Notes: a model not told the origin generated them from the sequence alone. 64,000 bases of DNA from Tulanevirus 60ahydrpp (IMGVR_UViG_2974724359_000001:19795-83794); one strand, 5' to 3'. Numbered from the stretch's first letter, positions 2,239 to 22,024 are shown. Made by a program: numbers and translations.

Positions 2239-5200
2239 CTATTTTCACCTGTGTTGGGTTTTGTGGATCACGAGGATTTCCAACGTCATCTTTCAGTCGT
2301 TTTTCAACTAGTCGTCTAAATTGTGAAAACGTCACAGCTGACTGATCAAACAAAGGACTCATTGCAAATCTTCGTTCTGATGGAAGTTTTCCTAACCATG
2401 ATTCTTCTTCAGTGTCATATTCAGGAGGAGGAACAAATGGTTCGCCAGCATTTGGCCCAACCAAGTATAAAGCTTCTCCGGTGGCAGAGTCATGCTCAAT
2501 ATTTCCGTCAACGTCTAATTTGGCTACACGATCGTATTGCTCAGTTGGGTAACCAGCATCCCATCGATACGTTTTCAAATTATCGATGATAGTTTCTACA
2601 TGTTTCATCGATAAACCAGAATTGATGAACATCGTGAGAAGTGTTATTCCAACAAATCCAAAACCAACTGGATGAACAAAACGGAGAACATCTTGCGCAT
2701 ATCTAGACGCCGGAAGAGTTGACTTTATAGTCATGGTGTAATATGATCTACCTCGATTGATATAGTCAATCGAATCGCTCATAAGCTCCTTTCCTCTAAC
2801 CCCTACCAATATTTCACCTACGAACGAACTAGTTTCGGATTTTATTTGCTGGCCTTCAAAGAATTTACCAATCATATTGTGAATGGTTATTCTCCATTTC
2901 AATTGGCCTTCAACATACTCACGATCCACGTATGTGACGTTTGCACGTCCTGTAGGAGTATATATGGTTCTTCCAACAATGTCTTGGCTTATGTTGGTTG
3001 AATAAACTACGATGTCATATTCTATTCCATGCTTTGACTCGATGTCGATTTCAACATCTTCGTTATAAAGCAATTTGAAAAGGAATTTATATGATTGTTC
3101 AACCCCTTTCGTGGAATAAAAATCGTAGGCCCGAGATTCAAAAAATCTTGCGACAGAATCTCGCTTAGCTTCATCCAAATAGATGTTTCTTTTTAAAACT
3201 TCTGACCAAAGATATTCATACGCATATTGCTCGCGAGGGTATTTGTTTTTTATCAAATTGAGCAATTTGTTGTAATACGTCCCGTTTCCGTCCGACAAGA
3301 ATTGCAGATAATATTTCGCAAATGCACCAAAATTGGTATCTTCGTCCAAATAACTTTCAGGCATCATTTTAGTAACAAGTGGCTGAAGGTCAGGATCCTT
3401 TAATCCAACAAATGGAGCAGGTGTCCACGGAACTTCACGCTCTTGATTGCGAAGCTCAGCTACCATCATGACGTTGGCCGGCTTCCAGAAAACGGATGTA
3501 GTATTTCTTACCCGATATGGGAATTCATAATACCCAATTATTTCGCCAGTATTTTTATGGAAAAGTACCCCATTGGCATATTGTTTGAAACCGGTAAAGT
3601 ATACGTTATTTGCATACAGTGTTACAACGCCTTTGTTGTAAGTTTCTCTGTTTACCCTTTTATCTCTTTCTGTTCCTTCGTCGTCGATAGAGAACGAATA
3701 TTCGATTTTTGGGTAAACAACAAGAGCTCTGTCGTTGTGTGTTATCCAACACCTTGTGCTAGAACGAGCCATCCATGTGAACGCTGCTTCGTTATAGTAT
3801 TGCTGAGGGCCAAGTTTCCACTCTGAATCATCGGCATTGATTCTGAATGTTCCCATATGAATTGGGATATCGGAATTATAACCTGGAGTCAATTCGTATT
3901 TTACTGCTTCAAATACGTTGTCATATTTGTTTGGTAAATCTAGATCTGGCAAAGTACCTGGATATTTGAAGTTTATCTGAGAAACAAATATCTCTTCTCC
4001 ATTTGTTGACATATTGCTATATTCATGCGATATCCAAGTATGGTCTTCGCCAATACCAAAAACTTTTCGCCAAGAAGTACCATCGAACTCATAAACTCCA
4101 GCAATTGGGTCATGGACAACATTTTTGGGGTTTGTTGGGTCTAGACCTGCCTGAGTAACTACGCCAGTAATCAAAGCATAAAGCTTGCCGTTGAATGTAT
4201 CAAGCTTTTTCGTAACAGCCCGTGCGTTTGCTGTTATATTGAAAGAGGTTGGGTCAAAAAGTTTCTCACCAAATGTCGGACTACCTGGATCAGTATCAAT
4301 CGGGGCATTAGATGTTTTGATTCTGCGCAACTTATTTCTAGCTGCTACATATACCCAATCGTCATCGGCAGCAATAGCTTCTCCCTTCCTAAAAATATCA
4401 CCAGGAAGCCGAGCGTATGAGTTGAATATTTCAACATCAAAACCAAGATTCAGTTCATCGCCAGTTTTTGAGAATGTCACACTATCTGAGCTAAATCTGA
4501 CGTCATCAGCTGACCATTTGACATCATTTGCCCGACGACCGTAATAGATGTTTTCATATCCAAGAAGATATGTAGTAGTGCTAGTTTGATATGTTACTGT
4601 TCTACTAACTGGGTTGCCGACACGCCCGTTGAAAGCTTTGTAATATTTCCAGTTTTGCCCTTTGTCATTCGACACTTTGGCCATTGGCTGAAAACGCTCA
4701 AACAGATACAACACGTCGTCAATTTCAGCTAGCATTGTTCTATTTTTGTCAACACACACTGGCTCAATAAAGCCTTGTATTTCGTGATAGTTTTCATTTG
4801 AAACTATTTTGTCATAAAGATTCGTCGCATCAGTAAATTGATTGCTGAAAACGAAATCTTCGCTCATTAGCGAAGCCATAATTACATCAGTATTGAAATT
4901 GACGTAATTTCTGTTGTTTTTAGAGAACTTTTCTCTCACAAAGGAAGCGGCAGGTGTGAATTCTTTCATGGCAGAAATGTAGTAGGCATTTTCCGAAAAG
5001 GTTTGAAACTCCTCAGTTTCTACCCAATCAGACATCTCAAATCCTTTTCCAGAAACGCGAACTCGCATTTTGTAATATGTGTCTGCTTGTATAGATGTGT
5101 CTTCAAACCATTCTTCGACCGATGTTACACCTAATTGACCCCAACTGGTTCCAGACCCTGCTCTAGTCTGAAGAAGTTCGACAATATAGTAAAAATTTGA

Positions 5201-17030: not shown

Positions 17031-17175
17031 ATATACCAAATAACAAAAGGTCGAGCGCAGCGCGGTAAGGAAGCGAAGCGGTTACATCCTTAATACTGAA
17101 CCGATTAAGTTACGGCGGATGGACTGGGCTATCGGTAAACGGGGAAGCATAGACCCGAGCACCTGGCGTTATTAT

Positions 17176-17260
17176 GCAAGTATGGTGGAATTGGTATACA
17201 CTGGAGGCTTAAAACCTCCCGCCTTCGGGATTGTGGGTTCGAGTCCCACTACTTGCACCA
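17176..17260 (+). tRNA. tRNA-Leu(TAA)
   Basis: acceptor gcaagta/tacttgc + A + CCA; anticodon arm ggagg-cTTAAaa-cctcc; long variable arm; T-loop GGTTCGAGTCC. Confidence 0.8.
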
Positions 17261-17271
17261 AATTCAAATTT

Positions 17272-17312
17272 CTAAAGCATATTGTTTACACGCTTTGGAA
17301 ATAAGATATTAT
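17272..17312 (+). promoter_or_regulatory. tRNA-cluster promoter copy 1
   Basis: ctaaagcatattGTTTACA-16-TATTAT; near-identical copies at 17642 and 20788. Confidence 0.55.
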
Positions 17313-17451
17313 TAACTTATCGAATCAAAACACGCATTCAGTCTTGAATGGGATAAATGGTGAAAAGCCATGGTTTTCCTGGAGCAAGCCTTAAGTGGAC
17401 AGAACTCTCATCCTAGTGACGCAGGAAGTGTTTAGATTCGAAAAGAATTCT

Positions 17452-17545
17452 GGAAGATTGGCCCGAGTTGGTTTAAGGCACCGGTCTTGAAAACCGGCAG
17501 TCGTAGGAATACGGCTCATCCGTTCGAATCGGATATCTTCCTCCA
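17452..17545 (+). tRNA. tRNA-Ser(TGA)
   Basis: acceptor ggaagat/atcttcc + CCA; ccggt-cTTGAaa-accgg; long variable arm; T-loop CGTTCGAATCG. Confidence 0.75.
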
Positions 17546-17551
17546 AATTGA

Positions 17552-17634
17552 GGTGCTGTGAGCCGAGCGGCTTAAGGCGGTCCTAATGCAGGACATACGA
17601 AAGCGTATCGTAGGTTCGAATCCTACCAGCACCC
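17552..17634 (+). ncRNA. type II tRNA-like gene with non-canonical anticodon loop (taatgca); anticodon unassignable
   Basis: perfect acceptor ggtgctg/cagcacc, D-arm, long variable hairpin catacgaaagcgtatcg, T-arm taggttcgaatccta, but 4 bp anticodon stem and loop lacking U33. Confidence 0.45.
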
Positions 17635-17641
17635 ATTAATT

Positions 17642-17682
17642 CTGAAGCATATTGTTCAGAGTTGCTGGAAATGAGATATTAT
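17642..17682 (+). promoter_or_regulatory. tRNA-cluster promoter copy 2
   Basis: ctgaagcatattGTTCAGA-16-TATTAT. Confidence 0.5.
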
Positions 17683-17713
17683 TATCTCATCGATTAAAAT
17701 AAGTTGATTTTGG

Positions 17714-17796
17714 GGTGATGTAGCATAACGGTCATGCGGCCGGCTGTTACCCGGCGAGGAAACTCTACGTTGGTTCGACTCCAACCATCACCGCCA
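17714..17796 (+). tRNA. tRNA-Asn(GTT) with unusually long variable region
   Basis: acceptor ggtgatg/catcacc + G + CCA; gccgg-cTGTTac-ccggc; 13 nt between anticodon stem and T-stem. Confidence 0.6.
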
Positions 17797-17809
17797 AAAT
17801 CAATTTCAT

Positions 17810-17893
17810 GGAGTATTTGGGTAACTGGTAGCCCAGCAGATTGTAAACCTGCCGCCTCTGGCATTCCTGGTTCGAATCCAGGATACTCCACCA
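17810..17893 (+). tRNA. tRNA-Tyr(GTA)
   Basis: acceptor ggagtat/atactcc + A + CCA; loop ttGTAaa; long variable arm; GGTTCGAATCC. Confidence 0.65.
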
Positions 17894-17914
17894 TTTCATT
17901 GCGAGAAATATATT

Positions 17915-18439
17915 ATGAAGCCTGACTTAATGACCGCATATTCCAATCAGCGTGGAAGAGCAAAGAATCGTGGAATAGATTGGGAATTTACATTCGACAC
18001 TTGGATATCTTGGTGGGAATCCACTGGTAAACTGAGTCAGCGCGGCATACATGTCGGTGGTTATATTATGTGTCGAGTAAATGATACCGGTCCTTATTCA
18101 CCATCAAATGTGTATTGCGGAACGTATTCCGATAACATGAAAGATATGTTATCATTGGGAACCCGCAAGGGATGGCAAATGAGCGATGACCATAGAGCCA
18201 GAATAGCCAAATTGGCCGGAAAAGCCGGTGGAAAACGTTTTGCTGAACTTTACTCATTAAGTCAAGATACAATCAAAACTCGTTTATCTTTAATATCAGA
18301 TATCGATTTGACGAAATTTGGTTGGGTTGTCAAGGTTGCTAAGGTTTTAAACATATCGCATACACAAGCGCGACGATTTGTTGACGAATGGTATGATGGT
18401 GAAGTTTACAAGAGAAATACGCCGGTAGCTAAGCGGTAA
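17915..18439 (+). CDS. putative homing-endonuclease-like DNA-binding protein (N-terminal YSNQRGRAKNRGIDWEFTFDTW motif, C-terminal helix-turn-helix)
   Basis: 174 aa ORF inside tRNA cluster; last 21 nt overlap tRNA-Lys; C-terminal AKVLNISHTQARRFV resembles NUMOD/IENR-type HTH. Confidence 0.45.
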   Translation: MKPDLMTAYSNQRGRAKNRGIDWEFTFDTWISWWESTGKLSQRGIHVGGYIMCRVNDTGPYSPSNVYCGTYSDNMKDMLSLGTRKGWQMSDDHRARIAKLAGKAGGKRFAELYSLSQDTIKTRLSLISDIDLTKFGWVVKVAKVLNISHTQARRFVDEWYDGEVYKRNTPVAKR

Positions 18440-18494
18440 AGCACCTGACTTTTAATCAGGATACTCGATGGTTCGAATCCATCCCGGCGTACCA
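18419..18494 (+). tRNA. tRNA-Lys(TTT)
   Basis: acceptor acgccgg/ccggcgt + A + CCA; cctga-cTTTTaa-tcagg; GGTTCGAATCC. Confidence 0.75.
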
Positions 18495-18500
18495 AACAAT

Positions 18501-18587
18501 GGAGAGGTAAGATGTAAAGATCATCAGCCCCTCGTAATGGGCCCGCCTTACAAGTCTTGTTGGAATCGAAGCCAACCCTCTCCACCA
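18501..18587 (+). ncRNA. tRNA-like RNA with CCA end and irregular anticodon and T arms
   Basis: acceptor ggagagg/cctctcc + A + CCA, D-arm gatg/catc, but anticodon arm gccc-ctcgtaat-gggc (8 nt loop) and 8 nt T-loop aatcgaag. Confidence 0.4.
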
Positions 18588-18684
18588 GATTTCGCAGTAA
18601 AGAAGTTGTAATGAACTGTCATCTTACGACCACACCGAGTAACGTTCGACGTATGATTACGAAGATTCCAGGGTGCTACAATTT

Positions 18685-18756
18685 GAATGACGAGTGTACG
18701 GCCAAGCACGCCACCTTTTAGGCGCCGGAGGACAGGTTCGAGTCCTGTATCATTCA
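18685..18756 (+). ncRNA. tRNA-like gene with 4 bp anticodon stem and 8 nt loop (ACCTTTTA)
   Basis: acceptor gaatgac/atcattc, D-arm gtgt/gcac, perfect T-arm acagg-ttcgagt-cctgt; anticodon region cgcc-acctttta-ggcg. Confidence 0.4.
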
Positions 18757-18785
18757 CTGCAAATTAGTTTCAAGTAATCATTGGT

Positions 18786-18860
18786 GTGACCTTAGTAGTA
18801 ATGGTAGCTATCCTGGATGTGACCCAGGGAGTACGGGTTCGAACCCCGTAGGTCACCCCA
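18786..18860 (+). tRNA. tRNA-His(GTG)
   Basis: acceptor gtgacct/aggtcac + C + CCA; cctgg-atGTGac-ccagg; GGGTTCGAACCCC. Confidence 0.75.
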
Positions 18861-18872
18861 ATGATTATTTTC

Positions 18873-18948
18873 GCGATATTAGCTCAGTTGGTAGAGCTTC
18901 TGATTTCCAATCAGAATGTCATCGGTTCGAGACCGATATATCGCTCCA
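18873..18948 (+). tRNA. tRNA-Gly(TCC)
   Basis: acceptor gcgatat/atatcgc + T + CCA; tctga-ttTCCaa-tcaga; D-arm agctcagttggtagagc. Confidence 0.8.
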
Positions 18949-19193
18949 AACACAAGTCACAGGGCTCTAGATTCCTAGTCAGTTTCGCACCCCTGGTTGA
19001 TGCACTGTCCATTATTGCGCCGTGACTGGAGCCCGCGAGTTGGACAACCGTATTGTCTCCGGCACTTAGATGACCGGCTTTAACAAGAGAAATCGGGAGA
19101 CGTCCCGTAAAATCCTCGGACAGAACTTTAGTAGTCACTCCCGTCATTTTGCGCGGTGAAACGAGGAAGTATAGACGGGGTAACGAATTCAAT

Positions 19194-19271
19194 CCGTGTG
19201 TAGGCTAGTCAGGTTAGGTCGTCTGGTTTGGGGCCAGAAAGTCGAAGGTTCGAATCCTTCCACACGGACCA
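19194..19271 (+). tRNA. tRNA-Pro(TGG)
   Basis: acceptor ccgtgtg/cacacgg + A + CCA; tctgg-ttTGGgg-ccaga; GGTTCGAATCC. Confidence 0.7.
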
Positions 19272-19547
19272 AATTACGTAAGCGGATACTTGGTTGCAAA
19301 CAAGTCCGTAAAGTCGTCGAATGTGGTAACATCCTCTCCTGGCACTATCCCAGTGATGCGGTTATCCAGAACGGCGCAAACTGAAGAATTGAGTCACATC
19401 CGTAAGGCCCTGACTCCAATTCTTCAAACACTCTTGTTTATGTGGCGGTCGAGACATCCCCACGTTAAAAACTGAAATCTCGATGTCCCGAGCTGCAGCG
19501 TTAGGGAAGAGTGTTTGAAGAATTGAACTAATGAGAAGAAATATATT

Positions 19548-20099
19548 ATGCAGATGACATTAACAAGACAGCATCACGCAGGCGAAATGCAATCATTCAT
19601 CGACGGTTCAATGACTGAAATCGATGCGATTTATGGATATGCGGATTTTTTATTCGAACGTAAGAAGAAAAAGCGAGCATCGCCATATATCAGTAATACA
19701 ATTCCAGCAATTCAAGCTTTTGCAGAATCTTTTGAGCAATCGATTGCTAGTTACTGCAAATACGCTTTTGCTAATAATATACGCTGCAAATGTGGTTACT
19801 TTTATATTATTTCAAATCCATCTTTTCCCGAAATGTATAAACTAGGCTTTTCGTTGGATTGCGTTGACAGACTTAAACAATATCAAACATATTGTCCGGC
19901 ACGCGATTTTAAGTTGGAATTCTATCTTGCTGTATCTAACGCTCGTCAAGTTGAACGACTTGTTATGCATATTCTAGGAGAACGAATGCAAAATGAGTGG
20001 TTTAAATCCACTGATATACGCGGCGACTGGAAAATGTTAACAAAAGAAATTGCACTTAATACCCGTGAGAACAATCGTTTTTATTATAAGCCAATTTAG
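19548..20099 (+). CDS. T5orf172 / GIY-YIG-like domain protein
   Basis: 183 aa; GYFYIISNPSFPEMYKLGFSLDCVDRLKQY matches the T5orf172 signature (GyvYvlsNp...KIG.T); embedded in tRNA cluster; 3' end overlaps tRNA-Thr by 10 nt. Confidence 0.55.
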   Translation: MQMTLTRQHHAGEMQSFIDGSMTEIDAIYGYADFLFERKKKKRASPYISNTIPAIQAFAESFEQSIASYCKYAFANNIRCKCGYFYIISNPSFPEMYKLGFSLDCVDRLKQYQTYCPARDFKLEFYLAVSNARQVERLVMHILGERMQNEWFKSTDIRGDWKMLTKEIALNTRENNRFYYKPI

Positions 20100-20164
20100 C
20101 ACAGCGGTAGTGCAACGTACCTGTAATACGTAGGTCGTCAGTTCGAATCTGACAATTGGCTCCA
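20090..20164 (+). tRNA. tRNA-Thr(TGT) with C33
   Basis: acceptor gccaatt/aattggc + T + CCA; acgta-ccTGTaa-tacgt; GTTCGAATC. Confidence 0.6.
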
Positions 20165-20187
20165 AATTTTTAAATGAGGAAAATATT

Positions 20188-20373
20188 ATGTTATTTGCTT
20201 ATCAAGTTATTGCTGTTATCTTCTTTATTTGCTCTTTCTTGGGCGATTACAAGCGATATTCAGACTCCCCTTCCGAAATTGCGGGTAATTTGATTGGCTC
20301 TGTTTTTGCCGGTGCTTTGTGGCCATTGACGGTACTTATCCATATTTTTTGTATCTCAAAACTCAATCGCTAA
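20188..20373 (+). CDS. small membrane protein
   Basis: 61 aa, two hydrophobic helices, RBS gaggaaaatattATG. Confidence 0.5.
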   Translation: MLFAYQVIAVIFFICSFLGDYKRYSDSPSEIAGNLIGSVFAGALWPLTVLIHIFCISKLNR

Positions 20374-20530
20374 ATAAATACAAAGGAACGGACTTCTTCG
20401 GACCCGTTCGTTAAGTAAAAAAGGGAAGACCATCTAGATATGACGAGGACGTCGGTCTGTATCATATCTAGCTGGCCCTTGGCCTCCGACGAGGTTTTGT
20501 CTGGAAGTGGTGCGCCCAGATCGTTTCAAT

Positions 20531-20606
20531 ATGACATTGGTGTTAGCGGTAGCATGCCGGTCTCCAAAACCGTGCGGCCAGGGTTCGAATCCTTGATGTC
20601 ATGCCA
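20531..20606 (+). tRNA. tRNA-Trp(CCA)
   Basis: acceptor atgacat/atgtcat (A1-U72 as in E. coli tRNA-Trp) + G + CCA; loop ctCCAaa; GGTTCGAATCC. Confidence 0.7.
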
Positions 20607-20608
20607 AT

Positions 20609-20684
20609 AGTGGATTAGCTCAGTAGGTAGAGCACTCGACCGATAATCGAGAGTGCATTGGTTCGATCCCAATATCCACTACCA
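20609..20684 (+). tRNA. tRNA-Ile(GAT) with C33
   Basis: acceptor agtggat/atccact + A + CCA; ctcga-ccGATaa-tcgag; D-arm agctcagtaggtagagc. Confidence 0.7.
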
Positions 20685-20691
20685 AATTCTA

Positions 20692-20779
20692 GGAGAAGTG
20701 GATGAGCGGCTGAAATCGCTTCCCTGCTAAGGAAGTAAACCGAAAGGTTTCGAGAGTTCGAATCTCTCCTTCTCCGCCA
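20692..20779 (+). tRNA. tRNA-Ser(GCT)
   Basis: acceptor ggagaag/cttctcc + G + CCA; cttcc-ctGCTaa-ggaag; long variable arm; GTTCGAATC. Confidence 0.8.
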
Positions 20780-20787
20780 AATGCATC

Positions 20788-20829
20788 CTGAAGCATATTG
20801 TTTAAAACTTCCCAACAAGTGATATTATT
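20788..20829 (+). promoter_or_regulatory. tRNA-cluster promoter copy 3
   Basis: ctgaagcatattGTTTAAA-17-TATTAT. Confidence 0.5.
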
Positions 20830-20856
20830 AACTCATACCAAAACAGAGTTTAGAGC

Positions 20857-20929
20857 GGAGCCATAGTTTATTTGGTTAAAATAGTCCCCTGTCACGGGTC
20901 AGCACCGAGTTCGATCCTCGGTGGCTCCG
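20857..20929 (+). tRNA. tRNA-Asp(GTC), CCA not encoded
   Basis: acceptor ggagcca/tggctcc + G; gtccc-ctGTCac-gggtc (one mismatch); GAGTTCGATCCTC. Confidence 0.65.
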
Positions 20930-20942
20930 CTCTAAATTTTGA

Positions 20943-21016
20943 TGTTACGTAACTCAGTCGGTTAGAGTCTGGGCCATAACGCCCCGGAGACGTAGGTTCG
21001 AGTCCTACCGTAACAA
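20943..21016 (+). ncRNA. tRNA-like gene, anticodon arm irregular (loop cataacg, possibly CAT-derived)
   Basis: acceptor tgttacg/cgtaaca, D-arm actc/gagt, T-arm gtagg-ttcgagt-cctac; anticodon stem tgggc/gcccc with C-C mismatch. Confidence 0.4.
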
Positions 21017-21025
21017 CCTAATTGA

Positions 21026-21102
21026 TGCGATGTAGAGGAGAGGTCGTCCTCGTCGGGCTCATATCCCGAAAATCGGTGGTTCGAATCCACCCATCGCTTC
21101 CA
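21026..21102 (+). tRNA. tRNA-Met(CAT), initiator-like (unpaired 1-72, three G-C pairs in anticodon stem)
   Basis: acceptor tgcgatg/catcgct (T1-T72 mismatch) + T + CCA; tcggg-ctCATat-cccga; GGTTCGAATCC. Confidence 0.65.
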
Positions 21103-21304
21103 ATTTCAATCGCTTGTTGAACGTGGGAAAATAGCAAAATATGGGAAAGGGTCGCGAACCGGAACCTTAAAGTAGCTTTCTAAGTACTTGTTGTCTGGCA
21201 GTTCACACATACGTATATTTGTGATGGGTTCGAGACCCTAACAAGCGCCCGAATAACAACGCCAGTGACTAATCGAATGATCGTTACCGGCTTTTTCATC
21301 TGAC

Positions 21305-21379
21305 GGCCCTGTAGCTAGACGGTTCAAGCAGGCGGCTCATAACCGCTCGTAGTAGGTTCGATTCCTACCAGGGTCACCA
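21305..21379 (+). tRNA. tRNA-Met/Ile2(CAT), elongator type
   Basis: acceptor ggccctg/cagggtc + A + CCA; ggcgg-ctCATaa-ccgct; GGTTCGATTCC. Confidence 0.7.
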
Positions 21380-21383
21380 ATTT

Positions 21384-21461
21384 GGGTTCTTCGTTTAATG
21401 GGAAGACCGTAGGTTGCTTTGCATCCTGATGATGCTATTTCGATACTAGCAGAACCCACCA
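21384..21461 (+). ncRNA. degenerate tRNA-like element with CCA end
   Basis: acceptor gggttct/agaaccc + A + CCA and TTCGATA T-loop, but no convincing D-arm; anticodon arm aggtt-gcTTTgc-atcct. Confidence 0.3.
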
Positions 21462-21477
21462 ATTTGAGGAAAATACT

Positions 21478-21927
21478 ATGGATATCGGATCCGGCGCGTC
21501 TTGGCCATCATGTGCATTGAGTAATTTTGCTCCACATGAATTCGTTATCGATGGGATTAGATGTTCCTCAATGGAAGGATTCCTTCAGTCTCTCAAATTC
21601 AAATCGCCTGAAATGCAAGAATACGTTTGCACTCTGGTTGGTAAAGCCGCCAAATTTAAAGGCAAAAAGAAAAACTGGTGGAGAGATCAAACTCTGTACT
21701 GGAAAGGTAAACCGATGCGGCGGCAAAGCGATGCTTATTCTGATTTAATCTGCCGAGCATATGACGAAATTGCGAAGAATTCCGGATTTCAACGGGCAAT
21801 CCTAGCCACCCGGAATTCTTCGTTAACTCATTCAATGGGTAAAAGCAAAAAGAATGAAACAGTGTTAACTGAACAAGAATTTTGTTCAAATCTGTATCGT
21901 ATCCGAGATAAACTTCAAGCCGCTTAA
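21478..21927 (+). CDS. NADAR (YbiA-like) domain protein
   Basis: 149 aa; SNFAPHEF..DGIRCSSMEGFLQSLKF matches the NADAR/YbiA signature (SNF...DG...S.EH.fQA.KF). Confidence 0.6.
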   Translation: MDIGSGASWPSCALSNFAPHEFVIDGIRCSSMEGFLQSLKFKSPEMQEYVCTLVGKAAKFKGKKKNWWRDQTLYWKGKPMRRQSDAYSDLICRAYDEIAKNSGFQRAILATRNSSLTHSMGKSKKNETVLTEQEFCSNLYRIRDKLQAA

Positions 21928-21940
21928 TTGCGGCTTTTTA
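21917..21940 (+). terminator. rho-independent terminator
   Basis: aagccgcttaattgcggcttttta. Confidence 0.7.
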
Positions 21941-21947
21941 GTCAAAT

Positions 21948-22024
21948 GGTCTCTTAGCTCAGCTGGATAGAGCAGCGGCCTTCTAAGCCGCGGGTCATTG
22001 GTTCGAATCCAATAGGGACTGCCA
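21948..22024 (+). tRNA. tRNA-Arg(TCT)
   Basis: acceptor ggtctct/agggact (two G-U) + G + CCA; gcggc-ctTCTaa-gccgc; D-arm agctcagctggatagagc. Confidence 0.75.

Follow-up and report, generated by a model that had tools for sequence, protein, structure and literature searches.

In the tRNA cluster of phage T4, two stable RNA genes, rnaC and rnaD, lie directly 3′ of tRNA-Arg, and the function of their products is still unknown (PMC3014915, PMC9697503). Anticodon-loop changes in phage tRNAs have been predicted to evade anticodon nucleases (PMC10264068), and the retron PtuAB and PrrC are countered by phage tRNA-Tyr and tRNA-Lys (PMC11555353). Here, five tRNA-like genes with aberrant anticodon arms were compared across related phages, starting from a window of 64,000 nt (the whole stretch of DNA that was analyzed). 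The window matches, at 100% identity, Aeromonas phage 60AhydR15PP (Straboviridae, Tulanevirus), whose record annotates none of these genes.

Layout of the tRNA cluster

The cluster occupies positions 17176–22024 on the + strand. An earlier note, made from the sequence alone, had described it as large, and ARAGORN and Rfam RF00005 both recovered the 16 canonical tRNAs that were named there; the count of "about 17" given in the same note exceeds its own list of 16, all of which were found. The features are as follows, each canonical tRNA being supported by both ARAGORN and Rfam.

17176–17260, + strand: tRNA-Leu(UAA), canonical
17285–17312, + strand: promoter-like repeat TTTACA-16-TATTAT, upstream of tRNA-Ser(UGA) and element A (scan, sequence reading)
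17452–17545, + strand: tRNA-Ser(UGA), canonical, 6 nt upstream of element A
17552–17634, + strand: element A, 83-nt type II tRNA-like gene (Rfam, 35.9 bits)
17714–17796, + strand: tRNA-Asn(GUU), unusual stem-loop variable arm
17810–17893, + strand: tRNA-Tyr(GUA), canonical type II
18419–18494, + strand: tRNA-Lys(UUU), canonical, 6 nt upstream of element B
18501–18587, + strand: element B, 87-nt tRNA-shaped gene, ACCA encoded (covariation, RNAalifold)
18685–18756, + strand: element C, 72-nt tRNA-like gene (alignment; ARAGORN "Lys(ttt)")
18786–18860, + strand: tRNA-His(GUG)
18873–18948, + strand: tRNA-Gly(UCC)
19194–19271, + strand: tRNA-Pro(UGG)
20090–20164, + strand: tRNA-Thr(UGU), C32 and C33
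20531–20606, + strand: tRNA-Trp(CCA)
20609–20684, + strand: tRNA-Ile(GAU), C33
20692–20779, + strand: tRNA-Ser(GCU)
20857–20930, + strand: tRNA-Asp(GUC), CCA not encoded, 12 nt upstream of element D
20943–21016, + strand: element D, 74-nt tRNA-like gene (Rfam, 48.8 bits)
21026–21102, + strand: tRNA(CAU), initiator-like
21111–21247, + strand: sixth tRNA-related RNA, ~137 nt (MFE fold, 12-variant alignment)
21262–21296, + strand: hairpin followed by a U run, probable terminator (sequence reading, alignment with compensatory changes)
21305–21379, + strand: tRNA(CAU), lysidine Ile2 type, 4 nt upstream of element E
21384–21461, + strand: element E, 78-nt tRNA-like gene, ACCA encoded (Rfam, 31.5 bits)
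21948–22024, + strand: tRNA-Arg(UCU)

In the CAT tRNA at 21026–21102, a mismatch at 1:72 and the three G-C pairs beside the loop bear out the initiator-like character ascribed to one of the pair, while the second (21305–21379) is a lysidine-type Ile2. The reported C33 of tRNA-Ile(GAU) and tRNA-Thr(UGU) is present in both, and the over-long variable region of tRNA-Asn forms a stem-loop variable arm. Among the canonical tRNAs of these phages C33 is recurrent: it is kept in the Ile(GAU) gene of 16 related phages and found in Lys of 3, in Asn of the Ahp1 type and in Thr of this phage, the Thr allele with C32 and C33 occurring in 60AhydR15PP alone among the phages compared. Copies similar to the promoter-like repeat lie at 17655–17682 and 20801–20828, and a mobile ORF (T5orf172/GIY-YIG-like) interrupts the cluster at 19548–20099. 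The hairpin at 21262–21296, which a consensus terminator scan did not list, probably ends an Asp-D-Met-long-RNA transcription unit.

Structure and covariation of the five non-canonical elements

All five elements described earlier are present, at the coordinates given for them and with good acceptor and T arms, and realignment with covariance models gives no normal anticodons; they are non-canonical tRNA-like genes and not folding artefacts. Encoded CCA, said to be frequent among them, is found in B and E only. Each element retains the acceptor-stem/T-arm half of a tRNA, shares a promoter-to-terminator unit with a canonical tRNA 4–28 nt away, and is absent from some related phages; the numbers of Aeromonas- or Stenotrophomonas-phage records containing them are 39 (A), 37 (B), 31 (C), 15 (D) and 41 (E). 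Databases miss or mislabel all five. A, B and E were undetected by ARAGORN, and B and C gave no Rfam tRNA match even at E ≤ 5. As the intergenic spacers of the cluster are 90–95% identical among the related phages, which are close relatives, sequence conservation alone proves little. Compensatory base changes were found in 12/21 pairs of B, 9/25 of A, five of E, four of C and one of D.

In the alignment of 11 variants of element B, 99.1% of cells are paired; none of 500 shuffles reached the observed value on four of five measures (16/500 on the fifth, further pair types), partner-slide controls fell to 33–51% paired, and RNAalifold independently predicted the same cloverleaf. Covariation includes the D stem (3/4 pairs) and the anticodon stem (4/5 pairs). 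The D arm has a 4-bp stem and a loop, UAAAGAU (18515–18521; UAAAGAG in all other variants), without GG, the variable region of 15 nt is unpaired, and the 8-nt T-loop AAUCGAAG (18564–18571) seen earlier is confirmed. The anticodon loop had also been read as 8 nt because of a C·C mismatch in the 5-bp stem of the 60AhydR15PP copy (arm at 18527–18543), but it is the 7-nt UCGUAAU, with C33 and anticodon GUA, and 7 nt long in 13/13 variants. B spans four lineages with differing neighbouring tRNAs: Tulanevirus, Biquartavirus, Cinqassovirus (Aeh1) and the Ahp1 lineage, which is unclassified. Besides Aeh1, Ahp1_CNU-2021 and three metagenome contigs carry it, and a search of 185,579 bacterial genomes gave no match. 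Y33-G34-U35 is kept in the loop and positions 32, 33, 36 and 38 vary, U33 being found in AhMtk13a and Asfd_1. Since the anticodon alternates between GUA and GUG (the latter in Aeh1, AhFM11 and Asfd_1) on an unchanged body, a fixed decoding role for B is unlikely.

Element A combines a 7-bp acceptor stem with a D arm that is Ser/Leu-like and has GG, a 5-bp variable stem-loop (17595–17608) and a canonical T arm; it has C as discriminator and no encoded CCA. Among its 8 variants 99.5% of cells are paired. The 5-bp anticodon stem (17580–17584 with 17590–17594) closes a 5-nt loop, AAUGC, shorter than the 7-nt taatgca proposed before because a U-A pair that had been left open covaries to C-G. In the 44RR group the loop is UGGAAAC with G33, and orthologues are annotated as His, Arg or Phe, or are unannotated. 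Five of the seven variable columns fall within the eight columns of the loop and its closing pair (P = 4e−5). In element D the acceptor (U1-A72), D and T arms are canonical, the anticodon arm (20971–20984) has a 4-bp stem and the 6-nt loop CAUAAC, and the CCA is incomplete (3′ end A-CC-U). The ARAGORN label, "Leu(taa)", entails A33 and a C·C pair; annotations elsewhere read Leu, Gln or Cys. In relatives the loop is CGUUGUA (7 nt, G33, U37) or CACAAC, and 5/6 loop columns vary versus 5/62 columns outside the anticodon arm (P = 1.3e−4). With its single compensatory pair (104/500 shuffles reach the observed value), the case for D against pseudogene decay is weaker than for B, A, E and C. Loop diversity is 0.38 in A and 0.42 in D, versus 0–0.07 in 14/16 canonical tRNAs, the exceptions being Leu (0.22) and Thr (0.29). 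As the anticodon stems of several canonical tRNAs in the cluster are also strongly variable, allele exchange through recombination close to mobile endonuclease genes may account for part of this pattern.

Element E, with GG in its D arm, has an anticodon arm (21410–21428) of 4 bp with the 11-nt loop UUGCUUUGCAU, which can alternatively extend into a long helix with a UUU cap, and a T arm (21434–21450) with a U53·C61 mismatch. Within the 44RR group, the 44 nt of its D and anticodon arms show no difference, while its acceptor and T stems have diverged there, with five compensatory pairs. None of the 41 phage records annotates an RNA gene at E, four of them have a protein-coding gene across it, and it lies 16 nt upstream of gene 30.3. 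Element C has a D arm with GG, a canonical T arm, a conserved C7·A66 mismatch in the acceptor stem, discriminator A and no encoded CCA. The four compensatory pairs in its nine-variant alignment are all in the acceptor and T stems, and its central segment CCACCUUUUAGGCGCCGGA, including the core at 18710–18723, is nearly invariant. ARAGORN forces C into "Lys(ttt)" with two mismatches among five stem pairs. The central fold is ambiguous: the 4-bp stem suggested previously is reduced to 2–3 bp at most, its first pair belonging also to the D stem, and one possible fold has the 8-nt loop ACCUUUUA (ACCUUUAC in phage 31, ACCUUUUG in Asfd_1), while RNAalifold prefers another.

Proposed mimicry of tRNAs and competing explanations

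On these folds and compensatory changes, we favour the explanation that the five are real tRNA-shaped RNA genes under selection that do not act as ordinary decoders, a reading to which, with the mimicry proposed for it below, we give a probability of roughly 0.4. Judging by their anticodon arms, A, C, D and E presumably cannot pair normally with codons. The elements would be co-transcribed with the neighbouring tRNAs and excised as stable RNAs of 72–87 nt by RNase P and by the enzymes of 3′ trimming and CCA addition, whose recognition is confined to the acceptor/T half.

A working decoder role for some elements, with unusual anticodon loops (B as a second tRNA-Tyr, the 7-nt variant of D as a tRNA-Gln, the 44RR type of A as a tRNA-Phe), seems unlikely; resistance to host anticodon nucleases would then come from their unusual positions 32, 33 and 37 and unusual elbows, with translation kept, a concept already published for phage tRNAs (PMC10264068). 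B does resemble a bacterial tRNA-Tyr in its 5-bp stem, 7-nt loop, A37, G1-C72, A73, CCA and long variable region, U33 is present in its AhMtk13a and Asfd_1 copies, clearly canonical tRNAs of these phages also have C33, and annotators call the 44RR orthologue of A tRNA-Phe and an orthologue of D tRNA-Gln. However, the GUG form of B is carried by the same A73 body without G-1, so B charged with Tyr would misread codons for His, and B lacks G18G19 and has the 8-nt T-loop. Moreover, the 60AhydR15PP loops of A (5 nt), D (6 nt) and E (11 nt) present no normal anticodon, the 7-nt forms of A and D have G33 (D also U37), and canonical Tyr, Lys and His genes lie alongside. A role as RNA-processing punctuation, where the acceptor/T half alone would matter by recruiting RNase P and 3′ processing enzymes, and the cuts would determine where nearby tRNAs and mRNAs end or how stable they are (e.g., gene 30.3 after E), is quite improbable. 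The elements do adjoin tRNAs or ORFs, the compensatory changes of C and E concentrate in the acceptor and T stems, and change in the A and D loops seems unconstrained; yet the covariation of B extends to its D and anticodon stems, the D and anticodon arms of E and the central segment of C are their most invariant parts, which would be unexpected if a minihelix sufficed, and the loops of A and D outpace the flanking spacers instead of drifting equally.

Very unlikely, and for A, B, C and E already disfavoured, is that they are tRNA pseudogenes, anticodon-arm mutants not yet eroded and conserved only through close kinship. Conservation of the spacers equals that of the genes, tRNAscan marks some tRNAs of these phages as "pseudo", and D, in 15 records with one compensatory pair, would suit such decay, but the compensatory pairs of B, A, E and C show selection on pairing, B persists in four lineages including Aeh1, and substitutions are non-random, concentrating in the loops of A and D. 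Homing endonucleases populate T4-type tRNA clusters, and a highly improbable alternative is that they caused the hypervariable patches of A and D at the DNA level, as immunity substitutions or co-conversion tracts, with no selection on the RNA. The T5orf172/GIY-YIG-like ORF in the cluster, the unique Thr allele adjoining it, Seg-like or homing endonucleases in relatives and segB within the tRNA cluster of T4 itself are in line with this; A and D, however, adjoin no mobile ORF in 60AhydR15PP, and neither the non-canonical loops in every variant nor the retained pairing in the rest of each gene would be explained. Engineered and sufD/sufG-type suppressors have 8-nt anticodon loops, and the earlier note had hinted at natural +1 frameshift-suppressor (quadruplet-decoding) tRNAs, for which B and C would be the candidates. 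This idea, to which the 8-nt loop of one possible C fold lends itself, is extremely unlikely: it fails for B with its constant 7-nt loop, and is weak for C, whose stem has 2–3 bp, whose acceptor has the conserved 7:66 mismatch, and which lacks an encoded CCA and an Rfam tRNA score, RNAalifold preferring another central fold; as its loop differs among phages, no quadruplet is conserved.

The proposed mechanism, tRNA mimicry, would place the elements in a conflict over the tRNA pool, where they would bind host factors that recognize the tRNA body or anticodon arm. The likeliest targets would be the anticodon-loop nucleases of anti-phage defence systems, for which the mimics could be poor or uncleavable competitors and B a nuclease-proof stand-in. 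Taken on its own, this mechanism is speculative and somewhat doubtful. It would fit the conserved bodies with loops of A and D changing faster than their flanks, the repeated replacement of U33 in the cluster, and the dispensability of each single element among related phages. Loops that stay conserved without diversifying, as in C and E, point to a sequence-specific partner more readily than to an arms race.

Comparison with the stable RNAs of T4

The earlier note had likened the elements to the two stable RNAs of the T4 tRNA cluster, which also contains segB; the parallel is apt, but the five elements show no sequence similarity to rnaC or rnaD beyond the T-loop. The sixth tRNA-related RNA (21111–21247) was missing from the list in that note. 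Within its acceptor-like closing stem of 8 bp (21111–21118 with 21240–21247) lie internal hairpins and a canonical T arm (21226–21238), and among 12 variants the closing stem has a U-A to C-G compensation and one internal hairpin is fully replaced. Compared with T4 rnaC, it likewise has no sequence similarity beyond the T-loop; in architecture it resembles T4 RNA C (species 1) and is, by this measure, a closer counterpart of that RNA than the five elements are.

The tRNA cluster and its annotation

Between positions 17100 and 22100, the window is 100% identical to record MH179477 of Aeromonas phage 60AhydR15PP (Straboviridae, Tulanevirus), where this stretch is annotated exclusively with 'hypothetical proteins' and with zero RNA genes. 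Parts of the cluster are common to 77 phage records, mainly from Aeromonas T4-like phages, and 21 related loci were retrieved for comparison. In the window, ARAGORN predicted 18 tRNA genes and the Rfam tRNA model 19. The earlier note, a reading of the sequence alone, had named 16 canonical tRNAs and five tRNA-shaped genes with odd anticodon arms (here elements A–E); ARAGORN and Rfam recovered 16/16 of the former, and the latter sit where it had placed them. Its initiator-like CAT tRNA is borne out at 21026–21102 by a 1:72 mismatch and three G-C pairs adjoining the loop, and the second CAT tRNA (21305–21379) is a lysidine-type Ile2. The main features are as follows.

17267–17320, 17640–17690 and 20789–20835: promoter-like repeat of about 50 nt in three copies (YCTRAAGCATATTGTTYA...GATATTATTA; TTTACA-16-TATTAT)
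17552–17634, + strand: element A, tRNA-shaped gene, 5-nt anticodon loop
17915–18439: ORF without a Pfam match, inside the cluster, its 3' end overlapping tRNA-Lys
18501–18587, + strand: element B, tRNA-shaped gene, 7-nt anticodon loop with C33
18685–18756, + strand: element C, tRNA-shaped gene, 8-nt loop on a 2–3 bp stem
19548–20099: ORF with a T5orf172/GIY-YIG-like domain (Pfam), inside the cluster
20943–21016, + strand: element D, tRNA-shaped gene, 6-nt anticodon loop
21111–21247: sixth element, tRNA-related RNA of about 137 nt with an 8-bp acceptor-like stem around internal hairpins and a canonical T arm
21262–21296: terminator-like hairpin downstream of the sixth element
21384–21461, + strand: element E, tRNA-shaped gene, 11-nt anticodon loop
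21478–21927: gp30.3, listed with the mobile-type ORFs that interrupt the cluster

The three repeats (17285, 17655 and 20801), probably early promoters dividing the cluster into transcription units, partition it together with the hairpin and its U run (21262–96). Elements A–E lie 4–28 nt from canonical tRNAs, as these do from each other. None of 17 related loci has an equivalent of the ORFs at 17915–18439 and 19548–20099 in the same place, and the second, because of its T5orf172/GIY-YIG-like domain, probably encodes a mobile endonuclease. Homing-endonuclease effects could thus be invoked for the variable patches in A and D, an explanation that we regard as very improbable.

Several canonical tRNAs are themselves unusual. 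The C33 that had been noticed in Ile-GAU and Thr-UGU of this phage is present in both; among the 22 phage loci compared, it is kept in 16 phages in Ile-GAU (20609–20684), the C32-C33 allele of Thr-UGU (20090–20164) is restricted to this phage, and C33 also occurs in Lys-UUU of three phages and in Asn of Ahp1-type phages. The over-long variable region read in the Asn tRNA is a stem-loop arm. In the Leu, Lys, Arg and Asn tRNAs, the anticodon stems are more variable than the remainder of the molecule.

Detection of the five elements depended on the tool. Against Rfam RF00005 (curated gathering threshold 29 bits), A, D and E scored 35.9, 48.8 and 31.5 bits, respectively, and a 5.4-kb search over the cluster gave no match for B or C even at E ≤ 5. 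ARAGORN missed A, B and E and called C 'Lys' with 2 mismatches in 5 stem pairs; D was picked up by both tools, though with A33 and a C·C pair. No gathering-level Rfam match to tmRNA, YrlA/Y RNA or other curated tRNA-like families was obtained in the cluster, where the sole sub-threshold match was YrlA at 19.1 bits (cutoff 69), over His-Gly and off every element, and permissive thresholds retrieved no other family. Public labels are inconsistent: orthologues of A are called His, Arg or Phe, those of D Leu, Gln or Cys, and those of C Lys or nothing, B is labelled Tyr in 1/37 records, and E nowhere figures as an RNA gene. In NC_055746 (50AhydR13PP), NC_029000 (IME13) and OP967013 (GomatiRiver_11), E or C is covered by annotated protein-coding genes ('endonuclease', 'hypothetical protein'), which probably overrun RNA genes.

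Each of the five is missing from some relatives: A and E are absent from AhFM11, B from avDM4, IME13 and phage 25, and C from phage 25 and most of the 44RR group, while D was found in 15 records only. Pattern scans of IMG/VR brought up no genomes beyond the references 44RR, phage 25 and Aeh1. No paper describing elements A–E was found in the literature. In the Ahp1_CNU-2021 lineage, four further 'pseudo' or 'OTHER' tRNAs are present in its own cluster (4137–4212 in locus L014; 1907–1977, 2772–2860 and 4980–5054 in locus L016), so aberrant tRNA-like genes may be a general trait of Aeromonas T4-like phages.

The sixth element, absent from the earlier note's list, is retained in 17 related loci, where paired bases have changed in compensation and one hairpin has been exchanged completely. 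Other stretches of the cluster also show conserved structure. Alifold predicts a high degree of structure (–58 kcal/mol, 3 compensatory pairs) for the 245-nt Gly-Pro spacer (18949–19193; about 94% identity over 15 loci, no Rfam match), which may be another non-coding RNA. The stretch 19272–19530 forms a long hairpin (GAAGAAUUG...CAAUUCUUCAAACACUC...GAGUGUUUGAAGAAUUG) that is conserved and has 6 compensatory pairs; one of its internal hairpins is replaced in avDM7, AhFM11 and Asfd_1. Two conserved hairpins 5' of tRNA-Trp (20425–20520; 4 compensatory pairs) hardly differ in the 44RR group, although it is more distant.

Structural selection and departure from the decoding design

Elements A–E are tRNA-shaped genes under structural selection whose anticodon arms depart from the decoding design. 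A canonical anticodon arm (5-bp stem, 7-nt loop, U33, purine 37) was found in none of them, and the 7-bp acceptor and 5-bp T stems were kept paired in all five, with compensatory changes in A, B, C and E. Of the two elbow components (G18G19 and a 7-nt UUCRANY T-loop), both are present in A, C and D and neither in B; E has the GG and a T-loop UUCGAUA. A terminal CCA, said to be often encoded among the odd elements, is encoded in B and E only. Sequence identity was rejected as a sign of selection, because the cluster spacers are as conserved among related phages (90–95% identical) as the tRNAs are.

The most extensive covariation was recorded for B. In an alignment of 11 distinct variants (two more, from Aeh1 and metagenome contigs, bring the total to 13), its cloverleaf is 99.1% paired, with both sides changed in 12/21 pairs (acceptor 2, D 3, anticodon 4, T 3). 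In 500 column shuffles, the observed value was never matched on four of five measures and was reached 16 times on the fifth (further pair types), and sliding the partners lowered pairing to 33–51%; RNAalifold, run independently, yielded an identical cloverleaf. The 8-nt anticodon loop read earlier in B had to be abandoned, the loop being 7 nt in all 13 variants (consensus W-Y-G-U-R-A-W) and the misreading due to a C·C mismatch at 28:42 in this phage's copy, but the 8-nt T-loop (AAUCGAAG) read with it stands. The D-loop lacks GG (UAAAGAG; UAAAGAU in the copy of this phage). Its AAGA could be paired with UCUU at the end of the 15-nt, unpaired variable region, a contact that we do not claim because it shows no covariation. 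Position 33 is C in most variants and U in AhMtk13a and Asfd_1, and the anticodon is GUA in most phages and GUG in Aeh1, AhFM11 and Asfd_1. B occurs in Tulanevirus, Biquartavirus, Cinqassovirus (Aeh1) and the unclassified Ahp1 lineage, beside differing neighbouring tRNAs; it was not found in 185,579 bacterial genomes scanned, and a metagenome scan returned three Ahp1-like contigs, all with the same B sequence.

In A (8 variants), 9/25 pairs show compensatory change, including 4/5 pairs of the long variable stem. Its loop in Tulanevirus-type phages is AAUGC, AACGC or AGAAC, closed by a U-A or C-G pair, and in the 44RR group UGGAAAC with G33. Between this phage and the 44RR group, the acceptor and T stems of E have diverged (5 compensatory pairs; a U53·C61 mismatch in this phage), whereas the 44 nt of its D and anticodon arms are identical; the 4-bp anticodon stem may extend through the loop into a helix capped by UUU. 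All 4 compensatory pairs of C lie within the acceptor and T stems, and a C7·A66 mismatch is conserved; its central segment (CCACCUUUUAGGCGCCGGA) is almost invariant and cannot form a 5-bp stem, a non-cloverleaf fold is preferred there by RNAalifold, and the 8-nt loop varies among phages. D has canonical acceptor, D and T arms and a 4-bp anticodon stem with the loop CAUAAC or CACAAC, replaced in four relatives by CGUUGUA (7 nt, G33 and U37).

Could these genes simply be decaying? The substitutions are not random: in A, 5/7 variable columns fall within the 8 columns of the loop and its closing pair (P = 4e-5), and in D 5/6 loop columns vary (P = 1.3e-4), giving loop diversities of 0.38 (A) and 0.42 (D) vs. 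0–0.07 in 14/16 canonical tRNAs (the exceptions being Leu, 0.22, and Thr, 0.29). Because of this clustering, the compensatory pairs (12 in B, 9 in A, 5 in E and 4 in C) and the wide lineage range of B, the five were rejected as tRNA pseudogenes. Decay is most arguable for D, the least secure of the five, which has a single, statistically weak compensatory pair; overall we consider decay improbable. Nor are they recent tRNA duplicates, as their identity to each canonical tRNA of this phage and of T4 is ≤ 0.71, the level between unrelated tRNAs. We therefore take A–E to be real, selected, non-canonical tRNA-like RNAs, with a probability of about 0.85.

Possible roles of the five elements

While the structural case is solid, any functional reading of A–E draws on sequence and structure. 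Since RNase P and the CCA-adding enzyme read the acceptor/T half of a tRNA and the genes lie within tRNA units, all five would be expected to be excised as stable small RNAs. A role as RNA-processing punctuation is an unlikely alternative. From their anticodon arms, we infer that A, C, D and E would be unable to decode normally. That some are odd but working decoders is a rather doubtful proposition, strongest for B with its 7-nt loop, and even there the alternation of GUA and GUG while the A73 body stays unchanged speaks against one set amino acid and codon. As for +1 frameshift suppression, hinted at in the earlier note on the strength of 8-nt loops, the 7-nt loop of B and the short stem and non-conserved loop of C make it extremely unlikely.

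A tentative possibility is tRNA mimicry: host factors that bind tRNAs would take A–E for their usual ligands, the most plausible such factors being defence nucleases directed at the anticodon loop. Such mimicry would agree with bodies that stay constant while the loops of A and D change quickly, and with a U33 that has been lost repeatedly within the cluster; the conserved loops of C and E would point instead to a sequence-specific partner. A search for antisense seeds was negative, as the reverse complements of the C and E loops match the 64-kb window no more than shuffled sequence does. In its fuller form, which we think rather unlikely, the mimicry reading makes A–E a family of decoys with tRNA-like processing and re-shaped anticodon arms that would tie up or block the host's tRNA-targeting defence nucleases, or some other sensor that binds tRNA, and themselves escape inactivation, with B as an ancient, Aeromonas-phage-wide member showing the YGU motif common to Tyr and His tRNAs. 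The retention of Y33-G34-U35 in B is only a lead. YGUN is the determinant of colicin E5-type cleavage. The tRNA-guanine transglycosylase requires UGU (PMC1635277), which B with C33 lacks.

Phage tRNA genes are now viewed as weapons against tRNA-cutting host defences, and this cluster holds five compact, comparably conserved tRNA look-alikes with defined decoding-arm defects, found in many culturable Aeromonas phages, some of which naturally lack one or another, so that the role of non-decoding phage tRNA mimics is directly testable. They also expose an annotation problem, with orthologues assigned to eight amino acids (His, Arg, Phe, Leu, Gln, Cys, Lys, Tyr) or unlabelled, and B and E escaping standard tRNA finders (E missed by ARAGORN, B by ARAGORN and Rfam).

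Comparison with known systems

The published systems closest in kind differ from A–E in several respects. The tRNA cluster of T4 encodes two small, stable non-coding RNAs, RNA C (species 1) and RNA D (species 2), which are made with the tRNAs, and these tRNA-like neighbours of phage tRNAs have had no known role for fifty years (PMC3014915, PMC9697503). The parallel drawn in the earlier note holds in that A–E also lie in a phage tRNA cluster, on the tRNA strand. However, the T4 RNAs, encoded directly after tRNA-Arg (rnaC, rnaD), are 139 and 119 nt long and not cloverleaves, although RNA C has a tRNA-type T arm, whereas A–E are 72–87 nt, cloverleaf-like and defective in the anticodon arm; blastn of rnaC and rnaD against the window gave T-loop-sized matches only (E about 1). 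The sixth element, with the architecture of RNA C, is a closer match than A–E, the likeness being architectural and without sequence similarity.

The tRNAscan-SE 'pseudo' tRNAs reported from T4-like phages, one in 44RR and three in Aeh1, were counted but not analysed for structure, conservation or covariation (Nolan et al. 2006, PMC1524935); they come from the same phage group, and B and E are not among them. For phage tRNAs whose anticodon loops carry substitutions, escape from anticodon nucleases has been proposed (van den Berg et al. 2023, PMC10264068), and the retron PtuAB and PrrC are countered by tRNA-Tyr and tRNA-Lys of phages (Azam et al. 2024, PMC11555353). Such tRNAs share with A–E their phage origin, their position in tRNA clusters and a non-canonical anticodon loop, and C33 in Ile, Thr and B fits the evasion picture. 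They retain 7-nt loops of canonical size and still decode, however, whereas A, D, C and E, with loops of 5, 6, 8 and 11 nt, respectively, would not be simple tRNA replacements.

In suppressors of the sufD/sufG type, a 5-bp stem carries a loop with one base inserted, and the rest is canonical. C has a possible fold with an 8-nt loop like theirs, but its stem and variable loop differ, as does the loop of B. TRNA-shaped RNAs with roles beside or other than ribosomal decoding include tRNA-Other of Bacillus cereus and the non-proteinogenic tRNA-Gly of Staphylococcus, which are cellular and aminoacylated, the staphylococcal ones with normal anticodon loops, whereas A–E are phage-encoded. Judged by their sequences, A–E would belong with the phage tRNA-like stable RNAs, a known but unexplained kind.
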